From: a virus
DNA length: 40,810 bases
Strand: one strand, 5' to 3'
UHGV virus genome: UHGV-0096231
In this document: piece by piece, positions 20,025 to 26,796 of the stretch
Layout of the letters: each line of letters opens with the position of its first letter
Numbering within the stretch: the first letter of the stretch is position 1
Made by a program: the position numbers and the translations under genes
Notes under the pieces: model-generated
Database searches by the model: none
The model's input: only the letters and a program-made list of their open reading frames with translations
Told to the model about the DNA's origin: nothing

Positions 20025-20579
20025 ATGCTTATTGGCTATGTTCGCGTATCAACAAATGACCAGAACACCGATCTACAACGTAATGCGTTGAACTGTGCAG
20101 GATGCGAGCTGATTTTTGAAGACAAGATAAGCGGTACAAAGTCCGACAGACCAGGACTGAAAAAGCTGCTCAGGACATTATCGGCAGGTGACACGCTGGT
20201 GGTCTGGAAACTGGACCGACTGGGGCGCAGTATGCGGCATCTTGTCGTGCTGCTGGAGGAGTTGCGTGAACGAGGCATCAACTTTCGTAGTCTGACGGAT
20301 TCAATTGATACCAGTACCCCAATGGGGCGCTTTTTCTTTCATGTGATGGGTGCCCTGGCTGAAATGGAGCGTGAACTGATTGTTGAACGAACAAAAGCTG
20401 GACTGGAAGCAGCTCGCACACAGGGACGAATTGGTGGACGTCGCCCCAAACTTACACCAGAACAATGGGAGCAGGCCGGACGATTAATTGCATCAGGCGT
20501 TCCTTGCCAGAAGGTGGCGATCATCTATGATGTTGGTATATCGACACTGTATAAGAAGTTTCCGGTCGGAGATAAATGA
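20025..20579 (+). CDS. pin: DNA invertase (serine recombinase, Pin/Gin/Hin family)
   Basis: N-terminus MLIGYVRVSTNDQNTDLQ carries the catalytic serine motif of resolvase/invertase. 184 aa from the ATG at 20025 with AGGAGG RBS. C-terminal helix-turn-helix present. Same position as pinE in e14. Confidence 0.9.
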   Translation: MLIGYVRVSTNDQNTDLQRNALNCAGCELIFEDKISGTKSDRPGLKKLLRTLSAGDTLVVWKLDRLGRSMRHLVVLLEELRERGINFRSLTDSIDTSTPMGRFFFHVMGALAEMERELIVERTKAGLEAARTQGRIGGRRPKLTPEQWEQAGRLIASGVPCQKVAIIYDVGISTLYKKFPVGDK

Positions 20580-20620
20580 AACCGTAGCACGTCGTATGCA
20601 AGAAGATCGTGCTGCGGTTT
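20578..20620. repeat. hairpin repeat, copy A
   Basis: accgtagcacg-(16 nt loop)-cgtgctgcggt imperfect inverted repeat directly after the pin stop. Shares the core gaaaccg.ag.cacgt.gtatgc with copies B and C. Confidence 0.6.
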
Positions 20621-20639
20621 ATGCTTATCACTTAAAGAC

Positions 20640-21464
20640 TCAAAAATTAGGTGAGTAACGGACCGGGGACATAGCTCCTTTTTTTCTTAATTCATCTGGT
20701 ATTTTTTTTCCAAGATAAAGATTTGCTATTTCAGGTGAGGCTTCTCGACCTTCAAAACCATAGCGAGAACTTTGTGTTGCCTCAAAGTCCGGATCCTCGT
20801 CCCAGTATTTCATCGTAGGGAAATTTTCACGTGTTGATTTGAGCCATTTATCAGCAATGAAAACCCCTCGAACGATCCCCCTTACAGTAGCAAGAATGAC
20901 TTCTGCTTGGCTGGCGCGAGAGACATTAATGCGCCAGCTAAATCGAACAGCATCATAAAGCTCTGAATCCTTTGCACTTCTGTTAACGGAAATCATTAAT
21001 GCTTTATGATGAAATGTTATGGTTTCGGGTTGATATGTTGCTATCAACTCTTTGACATGCGCGGCGCCGAATTCATTGCTGCCAGCACCATTCATGATAT
21101 TCGTTAACCCAGGGTAGGCATCAATAAGTGCTGCTTCAACTTCGTATGCCGTCTTTTCATCAGTCATTCCGTGTCGATGGATGACATGGATAACCTCAAG
21201 TCCTGCTAACCTTATTTCTCTAATTTGCTTTAGCTTGTTGCTCAGTAACTCGTCATCATCAGTCGCTGCCACTTCACCACGCATATGGGCAAATACGCGG
21301 TTACCTTTGCCTTTCCCTACATAGAAGGTGCTTCCGTCCCTCGGATCAATCAATCGGTATACATACCAGCCAAGGTGTTCAATTACTCCAGAAGGAAACT
21401 CAGTAATATCCATTTTGCAATATCTATGAATTATTTGTGAGACGTATATTAATGAACATTGCAA
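20640..21464 (-). CDS. GIY-YIG motif nuclease-family protein, solitary
   Basis: 274 aa. N-terminal [27 protein letters not shown] fits the GIY-(10-11 aa)-YIG pattern with a downstream Arg. The C-terminal roughly 170 aa is unassigned. AT-rich cargo gene. Confidence 0.5.
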
Positions 21465-21583
21465 GGGCTCACAACCAGTAGTGTTGAGAAAACCATCGGA
21501 GAAATGAGGCTAAGCCTTTGAATTTACATAGTACAAAAAAGATACTTTTCCTCATAATGTGAGCTAATTTTATGTTTCGTTTG

Positions 21584-21627
21584 ATGATTGGACCGGTCTC
21601 GAAAACCGTAGGCACGTAGTATGCGTT
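21584..21627. repeat. hairpin repeat, copy B (partial)
   Basis: atgattgg ... gaaaaccgtaggcacgtagtatgc. Shares the atgattgg leader with copy C and the core with copies A and C. Lies in the divergent intergenic region between the GIY-YIG gene and the methyltransferase gene. Confidence 0.5.
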
Positions 21628-21774
21628 AATTTATGAACAAACTACTTGTCTGCTGTTTTTCTGTCATTAGTCGTATATAGAATGATTCTCTATGCCTAAC
21701 AAAGCATCACCAGTGCTAGATTACGTTGCAGTCACTGTTTAAATATCCAGATAAAACATTTCCTTCTGGGTTGA

Positions 21775-24603: not shown

Positions 24604-24722
24604 TCACTCGAGAGCCGCGGCTCCTTTGCGTATCCTTTTTTGTCTCCTCACCGTCTGGTCGGTGTCCTGCTGAGACTGCTAACTTCCTGTTTTCGTTGGT
24701 GTTGTCCTTACACCGTTCAATC

Positions 24723-24788
24723 ATGATTGGTGGAGCTTGCGGGAGTTGAAACCGCAGCCACGTCGTATGCAAGAACGTGCTGCGGTTG
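24723..24788. repeat. hairpin repeat, copy C
   Basis: atgattgg ... accgcagccacg-(13 nt loop)-cgtgctgcggt. Same core as copies A and B. Confidence 0.6.
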
Positions 24789-25257
24789 GCTGGTGAACTT
24801 CCGATAGGGCGAGTATTGAATGATTTACAGCCGTTATTGATTTTACATATTTTTTGTATGAAAGGATTAGCGTCTCCTCCCACCGATCCTCCATGGCTTT
24901 ACGCCAGTGTCTCTAGGACTGCTATGTGCCATAAGCGGAAGTATTTAACAACTATCAGTGTTGTTCAACAGATAAAGGGGCACTTGATTTTTTCTGTTCT
25001 CAGGAAATGATAAAAGCGCGTCGGTTCAAGCCTGCTTAACGGGAGTTTGTTAATCCTGTTGCCGTGACGTTTTGACACCATTATGATGGGGAGACACTTA
25101 ATGTATGAAGGTTCCGCCACTTATACCTGTCCAACAACTGCCTCGGGTGTTTCTTTGTATGAATAAGTGGTAATGAGTAGTGAATCGCTAACAGTCACCC
25201 GAACAATCGGTGCCTGCAATTAATTCTATATTCTAAACGAGGGGGAGATTATTACAC

Positions 25258-26238
25258 ATGAAATTTAAGGACAAGAACCTTAAGGCTCTCGCGGAATGTA
25301 TCATAGGAGATAATAAGGCATTTCTGTATCGTTCAAGCAGTCACATCACTGAATTTTTCCAGGACTGCGGCATGGATGTTACTCATGACGGATCCACTCG
25401 GTGGAAATGGACGGCCCAGAGGCTTGAAGAACTTCTTTATGAGCCACAGTCAAAGCCACATACTTTGCCGGAAAGGTTTGTTCATGTGCTCAGAACTTTA
25501 ATGTTAAAAGAAGATGCAATGGATGACGATCCAGGAAGATTAAAGGCGCTTGAAGAACTGAACAAGCCTTTGATGCGGGAAGGCTATGAGGCATTCTATG
25601 GTGACGATCGCCTTTTGTATATACGCCATACCGATACCAAAACGGTTTCAGTCAGTAATAACCCTCATCGGCCCTTAACGCCTCACGAAGTAGAATGCAG
25701 AAGGTTACTGACCGCGTTTCTTGATACCTGCTCAGAAGATGAGTTAATAGAAGATATTCTCCTTCCTTTATTCCGGCAACTTGGTTTTCACCGGATAACA
25801 GCAGTGGGACATAAAGATAAAGCGCTGGAATACGGGAAAGACATCTGGATGAAGTTCACACTGCCAACTCAGCATGTTCTTTATTTCGGCATTCAGGCAA
25901 AAAAAGGTAAGTTGGATGCGTCCGGTGCCAGCAAATCTACGAATTCAAACGTGGCAGAAATCTTCAACCAGGTACTGATGATGCTTGGCCATGAAATATT
26001 TGACCCAGAAACAAATAGAAAGGTGCTGGTAGATCATGCCTTTATCGTTGCTGGCGGAGAAATTACTAAACAGGCGAGGAACTGGCTGGGCGGGAAACTT
26101 GATGCCAGCAAAAGAAGCCAGATAATATTTATGGACCGGGAAGACATTCTTAATTTATATACTGTAAGTAATGTACCTCTGCCAACAGGTGCTCTCATCT
26201 CTGATGATGCCGTTAAGAACGATGATATTCCTTTCTAA
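25258..26238 (+). CDS. hypothetical protein with PD-(D/E)xK-like nuclease motif (candidate defence gene)
   Basis: 326 aa, AT-rich, GGAG RBS. The segment ELIEDILLPLFRQLGFHRITAVGHKDKALEYGKDIWMKF...HVLYFGIQAKKGK fits an E...D...(Q)xK restriction-endonuclease-fold pattern. Function not established. Confidence 0.5.
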   Translation: MKFKDKNLKALAECIIGDNKAFLYRSSSHITEFFQDCGMDVTHDGSTRWKWTAQRLEELLYEPQSKPHTLPERFVHVLRTLMLKEDAMDDDPGRLKALEELNKPLMREGYEAFYGDDRLLYIRHTDTKTVSVSNNPHRPLTPHEVECRRLLTAFLDTCSEDELIEDILLPLFRQLGFHRITAVGHKDKALEYGKDIWMKFTLPTQHVLYFGIQAKKGKLDASGASKSTNSNVAEIFNQVLMMLGHEIFDPETNRKVLVDHAFIVAGGEITKQARNWLGGKLDASKRSQIIFMDREDILNLYTVSNVPLPTGALISDDAVKNDDIPF

Positions 26239-26733
26239 TCAGAAGTACGTCTTTTTCTGAAAGAATACGTGATAGGTAGCCACACCACACCTTTAGTGAC
26301 CCCTTAATCTGGTAATATAACAGCCCGTATGAATGTCCGCGGCATCGCGGGCTGAAATTTATTAAAAATACTTATTCATCAAGCTGGAGTAGTTTGCCGA
26401 GTAACTGTAAACGCCCAACTTAACCGGACCATTCACTTTTAGATTGCTACCAGCAAACCAACTTCCGTTTCTCGCTCATAACAGACATTAACTACAGTTA
26501 TGGTAGAAGGTATGCATACTGGGTGGGGAAAGTATGAAGGAAAAGAAGACTGCTGCGCAGTTTGTCGTCACATTTATCTTCATTGGCTATGCAAGTCATA
26601 ATACAAGGTGGGACAAAACTGAGACACATAAGGCCTCACAATGACTTGCAAGGCTTTACATGTTTTGATGTGGTGGGACGTGTGAGCGCAGTATTGATGG
26701 GGTAATACTTTGAATTAGAAGCGGATTCTTATA

Positions 26734-26779
26734 ATTCGTAATGCGAAGGTCGTAGGTTCGACTCCTATTATCGGCACCA
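26734..26779 (+). other. att core: 46 bp identical to the 3' end of tRNA-Thr(CGU) (thrW), not an intact tRNA
   Basis: ATTCGTAATGCGAAGGTCGTAGGTTCGACTCCTATTATCGGCACCA matches thrW from the anticodon loop (CGT) through the T-arm and acceptor 3' end. The 5' half of the tRNA is absent, so this is a duplicated attachment-site core. Confidence 0.8.
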
Positions 26780-26796
26780 TTCAAACATCTCCCCAA

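Follow-up and report, generated by a model that had tools for sequence, protein, structure and literature searches.

A patchwork of exchangeable, mostly anti-phage accessory genes separating the last tail gene from the attachment site in a probable SfV/e14-like prophage

INTRODUCTION

Lysogenic-conversion genes generally adjoin the attachment site (att), and defense hotspots of phages P2 and P4 have reportedly been described by Rousset et al. (2022). According to one account (PMC13586616), conserved phage genes flank these hotspots and defense systems are rapidly exchanged between them. In the e14 prophage of Escherichia coli K-12, pinE is directly followed by mcrA, a type IV restriction gene encoding an HNH enzyme, and then by the prophage end, attR, at icd; this is the order on which an earlier note about the locus studied here had relied. 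Integron cassettes, the pdif modules of Acinetobacter, and the Rci shufflon are all modules at short recombination-site palindromes. The core of the shufflon site, sfx, is GTGCCAA (PMC4176322), and small serine recombinases are associated with defense genes, mainly in Gram-positive chromosomes (PMC13552941).

Here, we analyzed positions 20580 to 26781 of a 40,810-nucleotide stretch of viral DNA (UHGV-0096231; the whole stretch is called the window below). Exchangeable accessory genes, most of them anti-phage, make up a patchwork of ~6 kb that runs from the last tail gene to att. In our best explanation, which we hold with good confidence as a whole, these positions form the accessory ("moron") region between pin, the last tail gene, and attR; the host element is an SfV/e14-like myovirus prophage of E. 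coli integrated at the tRNA-Thr gene thrW; and the region combines two units, each exchangeable independently of the other (20580 to 24755 and 24925 to 26478).

RESULTS

The region is delimited by a DNA invertase gene on the left and by thrW-derived sequence on the right:

ORF 19989-20579 (annotated start 20025), plus strand: pin, serine DNA invertase and left anchor of the slot (Pfam Resolvase, 6.8e-51; HTH_7)
26479-26733, plus strand: conserved attP-arm region of thrW-integrating SfV-type phages
26734-26781, plus strand: attR core, right prophage end (3' 46 nt of tRNA-Thr, thrW)

The pin gene, annotated pinE in near-identical genomes, is the last gene of the tail-fiber module and is 90.6% identical to pinE of K-12 e14, with similarity ending at the pin stop codon (20580). 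The cargo that the earlier note began at 20576 is real, but that position lies within the last 4 bases of pin, and the true start is 20580. GC content was 41 to 45% over positions 20500 to 27000 versus 55 to 59% in the late genes, in line with the AT richness ascribed to the ~6-kb cargo. The late genes, including those for baseplate and tail, were 97.5 to 98% identical to those of SfI, SfII, SfIV, and SfV. On the right, the attP-arm region retained 89 to 97% identity in thousands of E. coli genomes, positions 26609 to 26785 matched the gtrA-int interval of SfV at 95.5% identity, and similarity among related genomes was lost at 26785 to 26790. Direct comparison with thrW of the near-identical genome AF200 showed that positions 26734 to 26779 are identical to the last 46 nt of this gene, confirming the tRNA-derived att core at which the cargo had been said to end. 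An ARAGORN run called no tRNA at this core, since it is only a fragment of thrW. In AF200, the prophage is 98 to 99% identical, with ymfR, ymfQ, and pinE annotated; its integrase abuts intact thrW, and the prophage spans from thrW and the integrase to this attR. The 6-kb region is inside the prophage, proximal to attR, and most probably belongs to it rather than to another element, as the earlier note had assumed. The label "e14-like" suits the ymfR/ymfQ/pinE-type late end but not the att, which is thrW rather than icd/intE; "SfV-like with an e14-type tail end" is more precise.

Gene content between these borders was variable. At least 12 different contents were found after pin or tfa; mcrA, gtrABC, PifA-like, and AbiTii genes were among them. 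Seven contents are listed here from prophages whose tail genes are near-identical and which have the thrW att arm in common:

Slot content 1 (7 genomes): CMoRE, EcoRII restriction-modification (R-M) pair, and the gene for a 326-aa protein
Slot content 2: CMoRE and EcoRII R-M, with a 379-aa gene replacing the 326-aa gene
Slot content 3: CMoRE and EcoRII R-M, with DUF6650 and AbiTii replacing the 326-aa gene
Slot content 4: CMoRE and EcoRII R-M, with nothing where the 326-aa gene sits
Slot content 5 (O157:H7): CMoRE and an AraC regulator
Slot content 6: GGDEF, R-M, and a 321-aa gene
Slot content 7 (SfV): gtrABC

Other pin-bearing prophages held mcrA (e14), a PifA-like NTPase gene, a DinI-like gene, or unknown genes. 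Conserved flanks thus enclose gene content that differs among related elements, and the comparison anchored on pin and the att core, which the earlier note had proposed, revealed variable cargo rather than a conserved core. However, non-defense cargo also occurs in the slot (gtrABC, AraC, GGDEF-MASE4, LysR with a Zn-dehydrogenase, and GNAT with XRE), so that "defense hotspot" overstates what is a general accessory-gene hotspot. In addition, the CMoRE and R-M block terminates lambdoid siphovirus prophages that lack pin, and the slot is therefore better defined as running from the last tail gene to att than as pin-specific. The swappable hotspot of the earlier note accordingly stands with respect to its variable content, but neither as purely defensive nor as a property of pin. 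Among 5,426 E. coli genomes, 577 had the pin-to-CMoRE junction, 244 had the CMoRE and R-M block, and 7 had the full composite with the 326-aa gene at this slot.

Unit 1 (20580 to 24755) is a 4.2-kb block that carries CMoRE/PD-T4-3 and the EcoRII R-M pair and is bracketed by 38-nt hairpin direct repeats:

20580-20619, plus strand: hairpin element copy 1 (38 to 40 nt; AACCGYAGC..CGTGCTGCGGTT), directly 3' of the pin stop codon
20640-21413, minus strand: PD-T4-3/CMoRE, GIY-YIG type IV restriction endonuclease (PADLOC and PDB matches)
21817-23250, plus strand: Dcm/M.EcoRII-type cytosine-5 DNA methyltransferase (Pfam DNA_methylase, 4.4e-78, and DNA_meth_N)
23285-24499, minus strand: EcoRII-type (type IIE) restriction endonuclease (Pfam EcoRII-N, 3.8e-61; EcoRII-C, 2.1e-71)
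24573-24755, minus strand: stranded att segment from a phage that integrates at ssrA (tmRNA)
24750-24924, plus strand: hairpin element copy 2 (direct repeat 24750-24787) and left flank of the distal cassette site

The GIY-YIG protein matched the PADLOC model PD-T4-3 over its full length (PDLC04031; 5e-140; residues 18 to 273 versus model positions 1 to 255 of 256) and CMoRE of E. coli O157:H7 (PDB 9U75; 2.8e-171). The tyrosines of the CMoRE motif GIYxY-YIG (Y17, Y19, and Y31; PMC12923530) are present as G15-W-Y17-V-Y19 ... F-Y31-V-G33, numbered from M18 of the ORF. Judged by these matches, the gene is a member of PD-T4-3/CMoRE, with no difference detected. CMoRE is specific for 5hmC and glucosyl-5hmC DNA (PMC12923530; bioRxiv 10.1101/2024.12.20.629700), and near-identity to the characterized proteins suggests that the protein encoded here cleaves such DNA and protects against T-even phages. 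As a type IV enzyme against hydroxymethylcytosine DNA, CMoRE is therefore regarded as a functional analogue of mcrA; it sits in the slot that mcrA fills in e14, a replacement that the earlier note had pointed out, and would take the role played there by mcrA.

The methyltransferase also matched NCBIfam NF007772 (4e-279) and PADLOC MTase_II, and the endonuclease matched EcoRII itself (PDB 1NA6; 1.2e-241 over residues 1 to 403). The two genes are convergent, with the endonuclease adjoining its cognate-type methylase, and the hallmarks of EcoRII are present: an N-terminal effector domain, a C-terminal catalytic domain, and an adjacent cytosine-5 methyltransferase. High identity to EcoRII points to CCWGG specificity, and the enzyme would cut DNA that lacks CCWGG methylation. 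Since most E. coli have a chromosomal Dcm that already methylates CCWGG, EcoRII may act mostly on DNA that comes from dcm-minus hosts, or it may serve as an addiction module. All four cargo genes named in the earlier note (GIY-YIG, the EcoRII-like pair, and the 326-aa gene) are where it had placed them, and the defense-system prediction that it had suggested returned PADLOC matches to PD-T4-3 and MTase_II and no match for the 326-aa protein. Its statement that several occupants are uncharacterized fits only this one of the four.

The segment at 24573 to 24755, an internal second att remnant that did not figure in the earlier description of the locus, is made up of the 3'-terminal 28 nt of ssrA (24728 to 24755, reverse strand) and of ~155 nt similar to the chromosomal sequence downstream of that gene. 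Its identity was 98.7% to the end of lambdoid prophage S13 that is phage-borne and adjoins intact ssrA, and 89% to the CP4-57 right end in K-12; the S13 prophage has a native copy of the ssrA-flank segment at its opposite end. The hairpin normally follows the tail module, and it was also found 3' of tfa in S13 and 3' of the invertase gene in phage SKA5. Unit 1 was probably copied from the end of an ssrA-integrating phage; one of its borders would then have arisen by recombination within the hairpin, and the other by joining of the ssrA T-arm to the hairpin through short homology.

It is highly improbable that the 6-kb region is instead what remains of a separate island that had inserted beside the prophage, either as a tandem element at thrW or by transfer from ssrA. 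Such an origin would account for the att remnant of another integration system within the region, for an AT richness unlike that of the late genes, and for the tandem elements at thrW, where a P4-type integrase starts at 26945. Nevertheless, the thrW repeat that closes the prophage is distal to the region, and neither an integrase nor a second thrW repeat was found between pin and the region. Moreover, the sequenced SfV virion genome has gtrABC at the same place, between the tail-fiber genes and attP-int, and in S13 the same block is enclosed in a complete lambdoid prophage with an ssrA att copy at each end. We retain the reading of the region as prophage cargo.

Unit 2 (24925 to 26478) is a single-gene cassette within an 18-bp inverted repeat:

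24925-24942: left cassette boundary, TGTGCCATAAGCGGAAGT, spacer and right arm of a "type A" 9-8-9 site
25258-26238, plus strand: gene for the uncharacterized 326-aa protein
26461-26478: right cassette boundary, ACTTCCGTTTCTCGCTCA, left arm and spacer of a "type B" site

The right boundary is complementary to the left at 14 of 18 positions, and the palindromic site has the consensus GTCCGCTY-N8-GAGCGGAC with two spacer types. The sequence at 24750 to 24924 is kept in all thrW variants regardless of cassette type, and it directly follows the invertase gene in phage SKA5; in all cassette types, variable DNA begins directly after 24925 to 24942. The right flank of the distal site occurred in 45 IMG/VR contigs, and the 34 contigs and loci with both flanks yielded 24 distinct cassettes of 0.84 to 4.5 kb, nearly all of which kept the boundary motifs. 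The inverted repeat corresponds to half-sites of two 9-8-9 palindromes, and the cassette occupies a docking site in which many alternative cassettes occur.

In strain S115, an identical copy of the 326-aa cassette starts at the left boundary and ends at the right boundary. Two unrelated cassettes are common to the thrW phage slot and the S115 array, where the shared cassettes lie next to the gene for a 200-aa tyrosine recombinase (WP_023147793 family) that has a catalytic Phage_integrase domain only. The outside flanks have no homology, and the breakpoints coincide with the outer edges of both 8-bp site spacers. These data suggest that distal cassettes are swapped by site-specific recombination at short palindromes. 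We consider it quite possible, although we do not favor it, that the cassettes are ordinary morons exchanged by homologous recombination in the flanks or by illegitimate joins, their end palindromes being terminator-like hairpins. The conserved flanks are long enough for homologous exchange, and the cassette comparison found no cassette in both orientations. The window, like most thrW phages, has only half-sites where the cassette begins and ends, and it lacks a recombinase gene there. Furthermore, the type A palindrome was found in at least 120 species genomes, Alphaproteobacteria among them, and the small recombinase lay within 8 kb at only 1 of the 80 loci read. Against exchange of this kind, cassettes shared between non-homologous surroundings break exactly at the outer spacer edges, similarity to the recombinase-hairpin-site unit ends at the inner edge of the site in ~700 E. 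coli genomes, and sites of two spacer types bracket each cassette; the type A spacer also contains GTGCCAA, the Rci core. "Empty" prophages miss 32 nt beyond the unit between the inverted repeats and so are not simple excision products.

The 326-aa protein consists of an N-terminal helical domain, a C-terminal Mrr/MspJI-type PD-(D/E)xK domain, a variable linker, and a C-terminal D-D-I-P-F tip. The best structural matches of its model were Mrr/MspJI/AspBHI-type nucleases, while no fold was assignable to the N-terminal domain. The predicted structure places D195 and Q213-x-K215 in a putative catalytic motif of the D...(E/Q)xK type, with the catalytic loop (residues 184 to 193) poorly modeled. 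Searches of Pfam, NCBIfam, and PADLOC gave no match at E ≤ 0.01 to 0.1, nor was there a PHROG match; given no membership in a profile (Pfam Mrr_cat or related), we describe the protein as one that would work like Mrr/MspJI, not as a member. Its C terminus, NDDIPF, is a close variant of the D-D-D-I-P-F that defines the extreme C-terminal tip of SSB (PMC5872125). PF ends 116 of 120 close homologues, 96 of which fit [DEN][DENKAG]x[IVLMFY]PF, and members of a 45%-identical subfamily end in DDEIPF, EDIPF, or DDIPF although the linker columns vary. The protein is not itself an SSB: it has a helical plus restriction-endonuclease fold, and no OB fold was among the structural matches. By analogy, the acidic tip may allow tethering to, or gating by, proteins that bind the SSB C terminus.

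Homologues with 70 to 75% identity occur across Enterobacteria, Verrucomicrobia, cyanobacteria, and Omnitrophica, in defense-island contexts with no conserved partner gene. Family knowledge makes a third defense nuclease, stand-alone and DNA-cleaving, the most likely role of the protein. A role other than anti-phage effector, whether as a selfish toxin, as an anti-plasmid factor, or as a repair or replication nuclease that the SSB-like tip recruits, seems rather unlikely to us. Such a role would suit the cross-phylum identity, which is atypical of fast-evolving defense genes, the lack of PADLOC and PHROG matches, and a tip motif that normally serves genome-maintenance interactions (PMC5872125). 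It is harder to reconcile with the patchy distribution of the gene (191 of 5,426 E. coli genomes, 3.5%, with nearly all copies identical) and with its position in a mobile single-gene cassette whose slots otherwise hold AbiTii, HEPN, Septu-like, or RES genes. Neighbors in other phyla (KAP NTPase, AAA_15/OLD-like, DISARM-like, and toxin-antitoxin genes) and a nuclease domain of the kind found in Mrr, MspJI, and AspBHI likewise argue for a defense nuclease.

DISCUSSION

A lysogen would gain layered defense from this region, with EcoRII and the 326-aa putative nuclease joined by CMoRE, which would cut hmC or glucosyl-hmC DNA of T-even phages escaping R-M. The locus resembles e14 in its homologous pin, its ymfQ/ymfR-type late genes, and a type IV restriction gene directly after pin, but it differs in integrase and att, in carrying a 6-kb composite instead of one cargo gene, in using a GIY-YIG rather than an HNH enzyme, and in having the 38-nt hairpin that e14 lacks after pinE. 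With SfV, SfI, SfII, and SfIV it shares baseplate and tail genes, the thrW attP arm, and the cargo position; their cargo, however, consists of O-antigen glucosylation genes (gtrABC) and not nucleases, and SfV has at this slot neither pin nor the cassette boundary motifs. Compared to the P2 and P4 hotspots, the phage lineage and position are different, and the region is two-tiered, with short sequence-defined boundaries in the distal tier. The EcoRII system here has the same domains and convergent Dcm-type methylase as its namesake but is prophage-borne, not plasmid-borne. As in the association of small serine recombinases with defense genes (PMC13552941), a Pin-type invertase gene immediately precedes defense genes, here because pin is the last gene before the prophage accessory region.

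The 326-aa protein is like Mrr, MspJI, and AspBHI in combining an N-terminal non-catalytic domain with a C-terminal D...QxK PD-(D/E)xK domain, but it differs in having neither profile membership nor an assigned fold in its N-terminal domain; we know of no SSB-like C-terminal tip in these enzymes. The distal cassettes recall integron, pdif, and Rci systems in their single-gene modules, short palindromes, multi-cassette arrays, and tyrosine recombinase gene at the first site. They differ in their 200-aa recombinase, of FimB/FimE size, and in their candidate 9-8-9 sites with two spacer types. An integron was rejected, as the recombinase lacks IntI-specific features and the sites are not attC, which has R''/R' GTTRRRY cores; nor are they dif. 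The hotspot as a whole belongs to a known kind, with PD-T4-3/CMoRE and EcoRII already characterized, and the SSB-tipped nuclease and the cassette sites are the novel leads of the locus.

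Prophage frame and ends of the slot

The late genes of an E. coli myovirus prophage, whose head is of HK97 type and whose tail is of Mu type, occupy positions 1-20579 of the window. In AF200, a 98-99% identical genome, the late genes are annotated ymfR, ymfQ, and pinE, the gene names used for the cryptic prophage e14, and the baseplate and tail genes share 97.5-98% identity with those of the Shigella serotype-converting phages SfI, SfII, SfIV, and SfV. Past the pin stop codon (20577-20579), GC content falls from 55-59% to 41-45%. An earlier note had placed an AT-rich defense islet here, in the position that mcrA holds in e14, closed by a tRNA-derived att core. 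The e14 order in K-12 was confirmed as pinE, mcrA, attR (icd), with similarity between the pin genes (90.6%) ending at the stop codon, and all of the ORFs named in the note lie in the AT-rich stretch. The att core also held: direct comparison identified 46 nt identical to the 3' end of the tRNA-Thr gene thrW (26734-26779). ARAGORN called no tRNA anywhere in the window because only this fragment of thrW is present; it took the direct comparison to reveal the match. In AF200, the same prophage begins at an intact thrW with the integrase adjoining, indicating that the thrW repeat in the window is attR. Similarity to related genomes ends at 26785-26790.

Beyond attR, the thrW repeat also serves a P4-like satellite (26945-40810), integrated there in tandem. 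The satellite includes AlpA-like and AntA-like genes, an Ash-family protein, and the following features.

26945-28159, P4-type integrase
30581-30658, isrK
30721-30808, C4 antisense RNA
32540-34891, primase-helicase
36794-38155, protein with a P22 injectosome translocase domain (distal cargo)
38155-40260, 701-aa protein with no Pfam or PADLOC match (distal cargo)

Between the thrW core and the integrase gene lie 21-nt direct repeats (GTCTACTAAAGTCYYTCAAAA; 26797-26817 and 26860-26880), which may be arm sites for the satellite integrase. Separately, stretches of 20430-26480 are 100% identical to E. coli CRE1493 (NZ_CP019071.1), and the window probably derives from this strain or one very near it.

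Genes of the slot

Three systems occupy the slot between the pin stop codon and attR (20580-26781).

20640-21413, minus strand, GIY-YIG gene (PD-T4-3/CMoRE)
21817-23250, Dcm/M.EcoRII-type methylase, convergent with the endonuclease gene
23285-24499, minus strand, EcoRII-type endonuclease
25258-26238, plus strand, gene for a 326-aa protein, cargo of a distal cassette (Unit 2, 24925-26478)

The GIY-YIG gene matched PADLOC PD-T4-3 over its full length (5e-140), and its product is nearly identical to a solved protein (9U75; 2.8e-171), with the diagnostic CMoRE tyrosines Y17, Y19, and Y31 at the expected positions. Now known as CMoRE, PD-T4-3 was shown to be a type IV, modification-dependent endonuclease; it degrades DNA bearing 5-hydroxymethylcytosine, whether plain or glucosylated, and protects against T-even phages (PMC12923530); evidence from a native host has also been reported (bioRxiv 10.1101/2024.12.20.629700). 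As in e14, the first gene past pin encodes a type IV restriction enzyme, although the enzyme in the window differs in fold. The endonuclease aligned with EcoRII (1NA6) over 403 residues (1.2e-241) and contains both EcoRII domains. The suggestion that several occupants are uncharacterized thus applies to one of the three systems: CMoRE and EcoRII are characterized, and the 326-aa gene is unannotated.

Slot contents differ among related prophages

We compared everything between the last tail gene and att in related prophages.

Table. Slot contents (cargo; integration site or tail type; source)
CMoRE, EcoRII restriction-modification (R-M), 326-aa gene; thrW, e14/SfV-type tail; 7 genomes
CMoRE, R-M, 379-aa unknown; thrW; NT1W22 and many pig isolates
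CMoRE, R-M, DUF6650 and AbiTii; thrW; E4, TUM10008
CMoRE, AraC regulator, IS fragment; thrW; O157:H7
GGDEF-MASE4 protein, R-M, 321-aa unknown; thrW; EC0026B
gtrV, gtrB, gtrA; SfV
DinI-like gene; other site; phage SKA5
PifA-like KAP NTPase (PADLOC 7e-79); other site
215-aa unknown; other site; F11
DUF2335 and small ORFs; other site
mcrA; icd; e14

Among 5,426 complete E. coli genomes, the pin-to-CMoRE junction was found in 577, the CMoRE and R-M block in 244, and the 326-aa gene in 191. The block also begins at the same base past the tail-fiber assembly gene in the lambdoid siphovirus prophages of ECO20, which is at thrW and holds the full composite, and S13, which is at ssrA. The earlier proposal of a swappable slot for defense genes next to pin is therefore upheld in that contents vary among relatives; however, the slot is composite, is not specific to pin, and carries cargo that is not exclusively defensive.

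Unit 1 retains an ssrA attachment region

Unit 1 (20580-24755), the 4.2-kb block of CMoRE and EcoRII genes, lies between two direct copies of a 38-nt hairpin (20580-20619 and 24750-24787). The same hairpin lies directly 3' of the last tail gene in lambdoid S13 and phage SKA5 and is absent from that position in K-12 e14 and SfV. At the right end of Unit 1, the segment 24573-24755 consists of the 28-nt 3' end of ssrA and ~155 nt of flank-like sequence. It resembles ssrA with its downstream flank at ~90% in thousands of genomes and at 98.7% in S13. In S13, which carries a complete lambdoid prophage, a copy of this type adjoins the intact tmRNA gene at one prophage end, and the other end, beside the integrase, has the native ssrA 3' end and native flank. 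In K-12, the same ssrA flank closes CP4-57. Together, the copies at the S13 prophage ends and the CP4-57 flank indicate that 24573-24755 is the att-homology region of an ssrA-integrating phage. We considered that 24573-24727 might be host DNA acquired by aberrant excision and rejected this origin, since the S13 prophage shows the phage version at one of its ends and the native version (90%) at the opposite one. Judged from these alignments, the att region of an ssrA phage has been left stranded in a thrW prophage, 2 kb from its end.

The right join of Unit 1 falls where the ssrA T-arm and the hairpin have short similarity. We propose that a thrW phage acquired, by recombination behind the hairpin, the cargo end of an ssrA phage with its att included, the direction of transfer being likewise a proposal. 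The stranded segment documents that cargo is carried along when phages exchange integration modules.

Unit 2 has sequence-defined boundaries and variable cargo

All thrW variants share a left flank conserved to 24942 and a right flank conserved from 26461. The last 18 nt of the left flank (24925-24942; TGTGCCATAAGCGGAAGT) and the first 18 nt of the right (26461-26478; ACTTCCGTTTCTCGCTCA) form inverted repeats (14/18 complementary), each a half-site. An IMG/VR scan with the 32 nt right of the repeat returned 45 contigs, 30 of which also had the left flank. These 30 contigs, the window, and three E. coli loci held 24 different cassettes of 0.84-4.5 kb, nearly all with the boundary motifs kept. 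More than half of the cargo proteins in this census (24 cargo sets from one scan, anchored on 187 nt of left flank and 32 nt of right flank) had no Pfam domain. The cargo included two AAA_15/AAA_21 ATPases (one adjoining an HNH-motif protein and resembling Septu on visual inspection), two RES-domain proteins, a trypsin-like protease, a ParA-like ATPase, LysR with a Zn-dehydrogenase, and GNAT with XRE. The Pin/Hin/Gin crossover site was rejected as the boundary motif, its consensus being unlike the boundaries.

Cassettes recur beside a small tyrosine recombinase

Strain S115 has a further copy of the 326-aa cassette (99.7-99.9% identity) in a Rac/Qin-type prophage, between hokD and the gene for a 200-aa tyrosine recombinase of catalytic domain only (WP_023147793 family; also WP_001305361). 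The shared sequence spans exactly repeat to repeat. At recombinase-linked loci, the sites are complete 9-8-9 palindromes that separate successive genes and have either of two spacers, TGTGCCAR in type A (GTCCGCTY-TGTGCCAR-GAGCGGAC) or CTCGCTCA in type B (GTCCGCTC-CTCGCTCA-GAGCGGAC). Sites and recombinase genes are as follows, in locus coordinates.

S115, 9-8-9 sites: 5153-5174, 6369-6390, 9001-9018, 10540-10561
S115, recombinase: 8372-8974
Locus L073, 9-8-9 sites: 4437, 7649, 8705
ATCC 25922 and Ecol_244 (L073 and L074), recombinase: 6001-6603
Locus L075, 9-8-9 sites: 3332, 8676

The S115 array has a second cassette (1158 bp) in common with a thrW-type contig of IMG/VR; the two copies match at 99.3%, and identity again opens at a type A spacer and closes at a type B spacer. 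The recombinase gene is followed by a hairpin and then a type A half-site, a unit found in 881 of 5,426 E. coli genomes (16%), with the 326-aa nuclease among the cargos past the site. In ~700 of the 881, similarity to the unit ends at the inner edge of the site, with different cargo thereafter (e.g., an ETEC_3214-family protein or a HEPN protein). One thrW cassette (IMG/VR contig L061) itself encodes a 94% identical recombinase, and here too a hairpin and a site come after the gene. In ATCC 25922 and Ecol_244 (locus 1-3628), the array adjoins dynamin-family, RdcB-family, and patatin-like genes, indicating that recombinase and cassette array are not confined to prophages.

The cassette boundaries are defined in sequence and recur at unrelated loci beside a small tyrosine recombinase, and the type A spacer includes the Rci shufflon core, GTGCCAA. 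Rfam gave no match for the type A palindrome, the other full palindromic sites, or 24400-27000 at both gathering and E-value thresholds. Several observations argue against a dedicated exchange system. At least 120 species genomes contain the type A palindrome TCCGCTY-TGTGCCAR-RAGCGGA, among them Xanthobacteraceae and, in a genome-contig scan, many Pantoea and Erwinia, and hardly any copy has the recombinase within 8 kb. Xanthobacteraceae/Pseudolabrys MAGs have many type A copies, which are sometimes paired at a spacing of 45 or 91 bp and accompanied by a second loop sequence. No cassette inversion between the inverted repeats was seen in 34 phage-type loci or contigs, ~180 recombinase-linked genomes, or 7 thrW-copy genomes. 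In addition, "empty" prophages are not clean deletions from repeat to repeat, and the window holds only half-sites.

Weighing these patterns, we regard site-specific exchange at Unit 2 as plausible, at somewhat under an even chance. The fuller reading is tentative and sits at the lower edge of that estimate: 24925-26478 would be the docking site of an undescribed system in which a FimB-sized 200-aa recombinase moves single-gene modules, many of them defensive and each bracketed by heterotypic A and B sites, between prophages, islands, and plasmids. Such a system would be a natural counterpart of recombinase-mediated cassette exchange, and boundaries that are recombination sites would provide a testable mechanism by which single defense genes hop between phages and islands. 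The cassette in the window would then bring a second novelty, an Mrr-like nuclease with a mimic of the SSB C-terminal tip.

The 326-aa protein is a predicted nuclease with an SSB-like tip

The 326-aa protein had no match in Pfam, NCBIfam, PADLOC, PHROGs, or PDB sequences. It has 3,877 homologues (E ≤ 1e-3), nearly all ~326 aa long, and identity within the family is 70-75% even in Verrucomicrobia, cyanobacteria, Omnitrophica, Vibrio, and Halomonadaceae; a second subfamily is ~45% identical. An AlphaFold2 model from 27 close homologues had a poor catalytic core (pLDDT 67), and adding the second subfamily to the alignment raised pLDDT to 78. In this model, the N-terminal domain (residues 1-140) is helical, includes a beta hairpin, and matched no known fold, and residues 158-305 share their alpha-beta-beta-beta-alpha-beta topology with PD-(D/E)xK nucleases. 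In a distant relative, the nuclease domain (38% identity) is fused to a Schlafen AlbA_2 domain instead, so the nuclease domain is a module paired with various N-terminal domains. The gene is solitary in other taxa, where its neighbors are KAP NTPase, AAA_15-type ATPase, toxin-antitoxin, DISARM-like, and RHS genes and no conserved adjoining partner was found. The protein is predicted to be a stand-alone Mrr-like nuclease.

The C terminus, NDDIPF (26221-26235), follows a variable 15-residue linker. Close homologues end in PF in 116 of 120 cases, most commonly as DDDIPF, and the second subfamily ends in DDEIPF, EDIPF, or DDIPF; the ending is absent from remoter relatives that have different N-terminal domains. 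Bacterial SSB contacts its partner proteins through a conserved C-terminal hexapeptide, DDDIPF (PMC5872125). The acidic tip may dock the protein on SSB-binding proteins; alternatively, it may fold back on the protein's own DNA-binding surface until a competitor displaces it. DARNA (PD-T7-3), an SSB-related defense protein, was rejected as a relative, being an unrelated HEPN protein. Our literature searches (tip with nuclease or defense, SSB-Ct mimics, WP_023147794) found no description of the family and no report of an SSB-type tip on a restriction-type nuclease. This unannotated family, which numbers thousands of proteins across many phyla, joins a restriction-type nuclease with an SSB interaction motif and offers a testable link between a defense-type effector and the replication and repair hub.

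Comparison with known hotspots

Cargo adjoining att is a long-known feature of temperate phages. Defense hotspots are established for P2 and P4 (PMC13586616), and small serine recombinase genes are associated with defense genes (PMC13552941). Given these precedents, the islet belongs to an already known kind of hotspot. Two features stand above the ordinary, namely, the sequence-defined cassette site with its linked small recombinase and the SSB-tipped nuclease family. The slot itself joins the clearly bounded phage hotspots in which defense genes can be sought.
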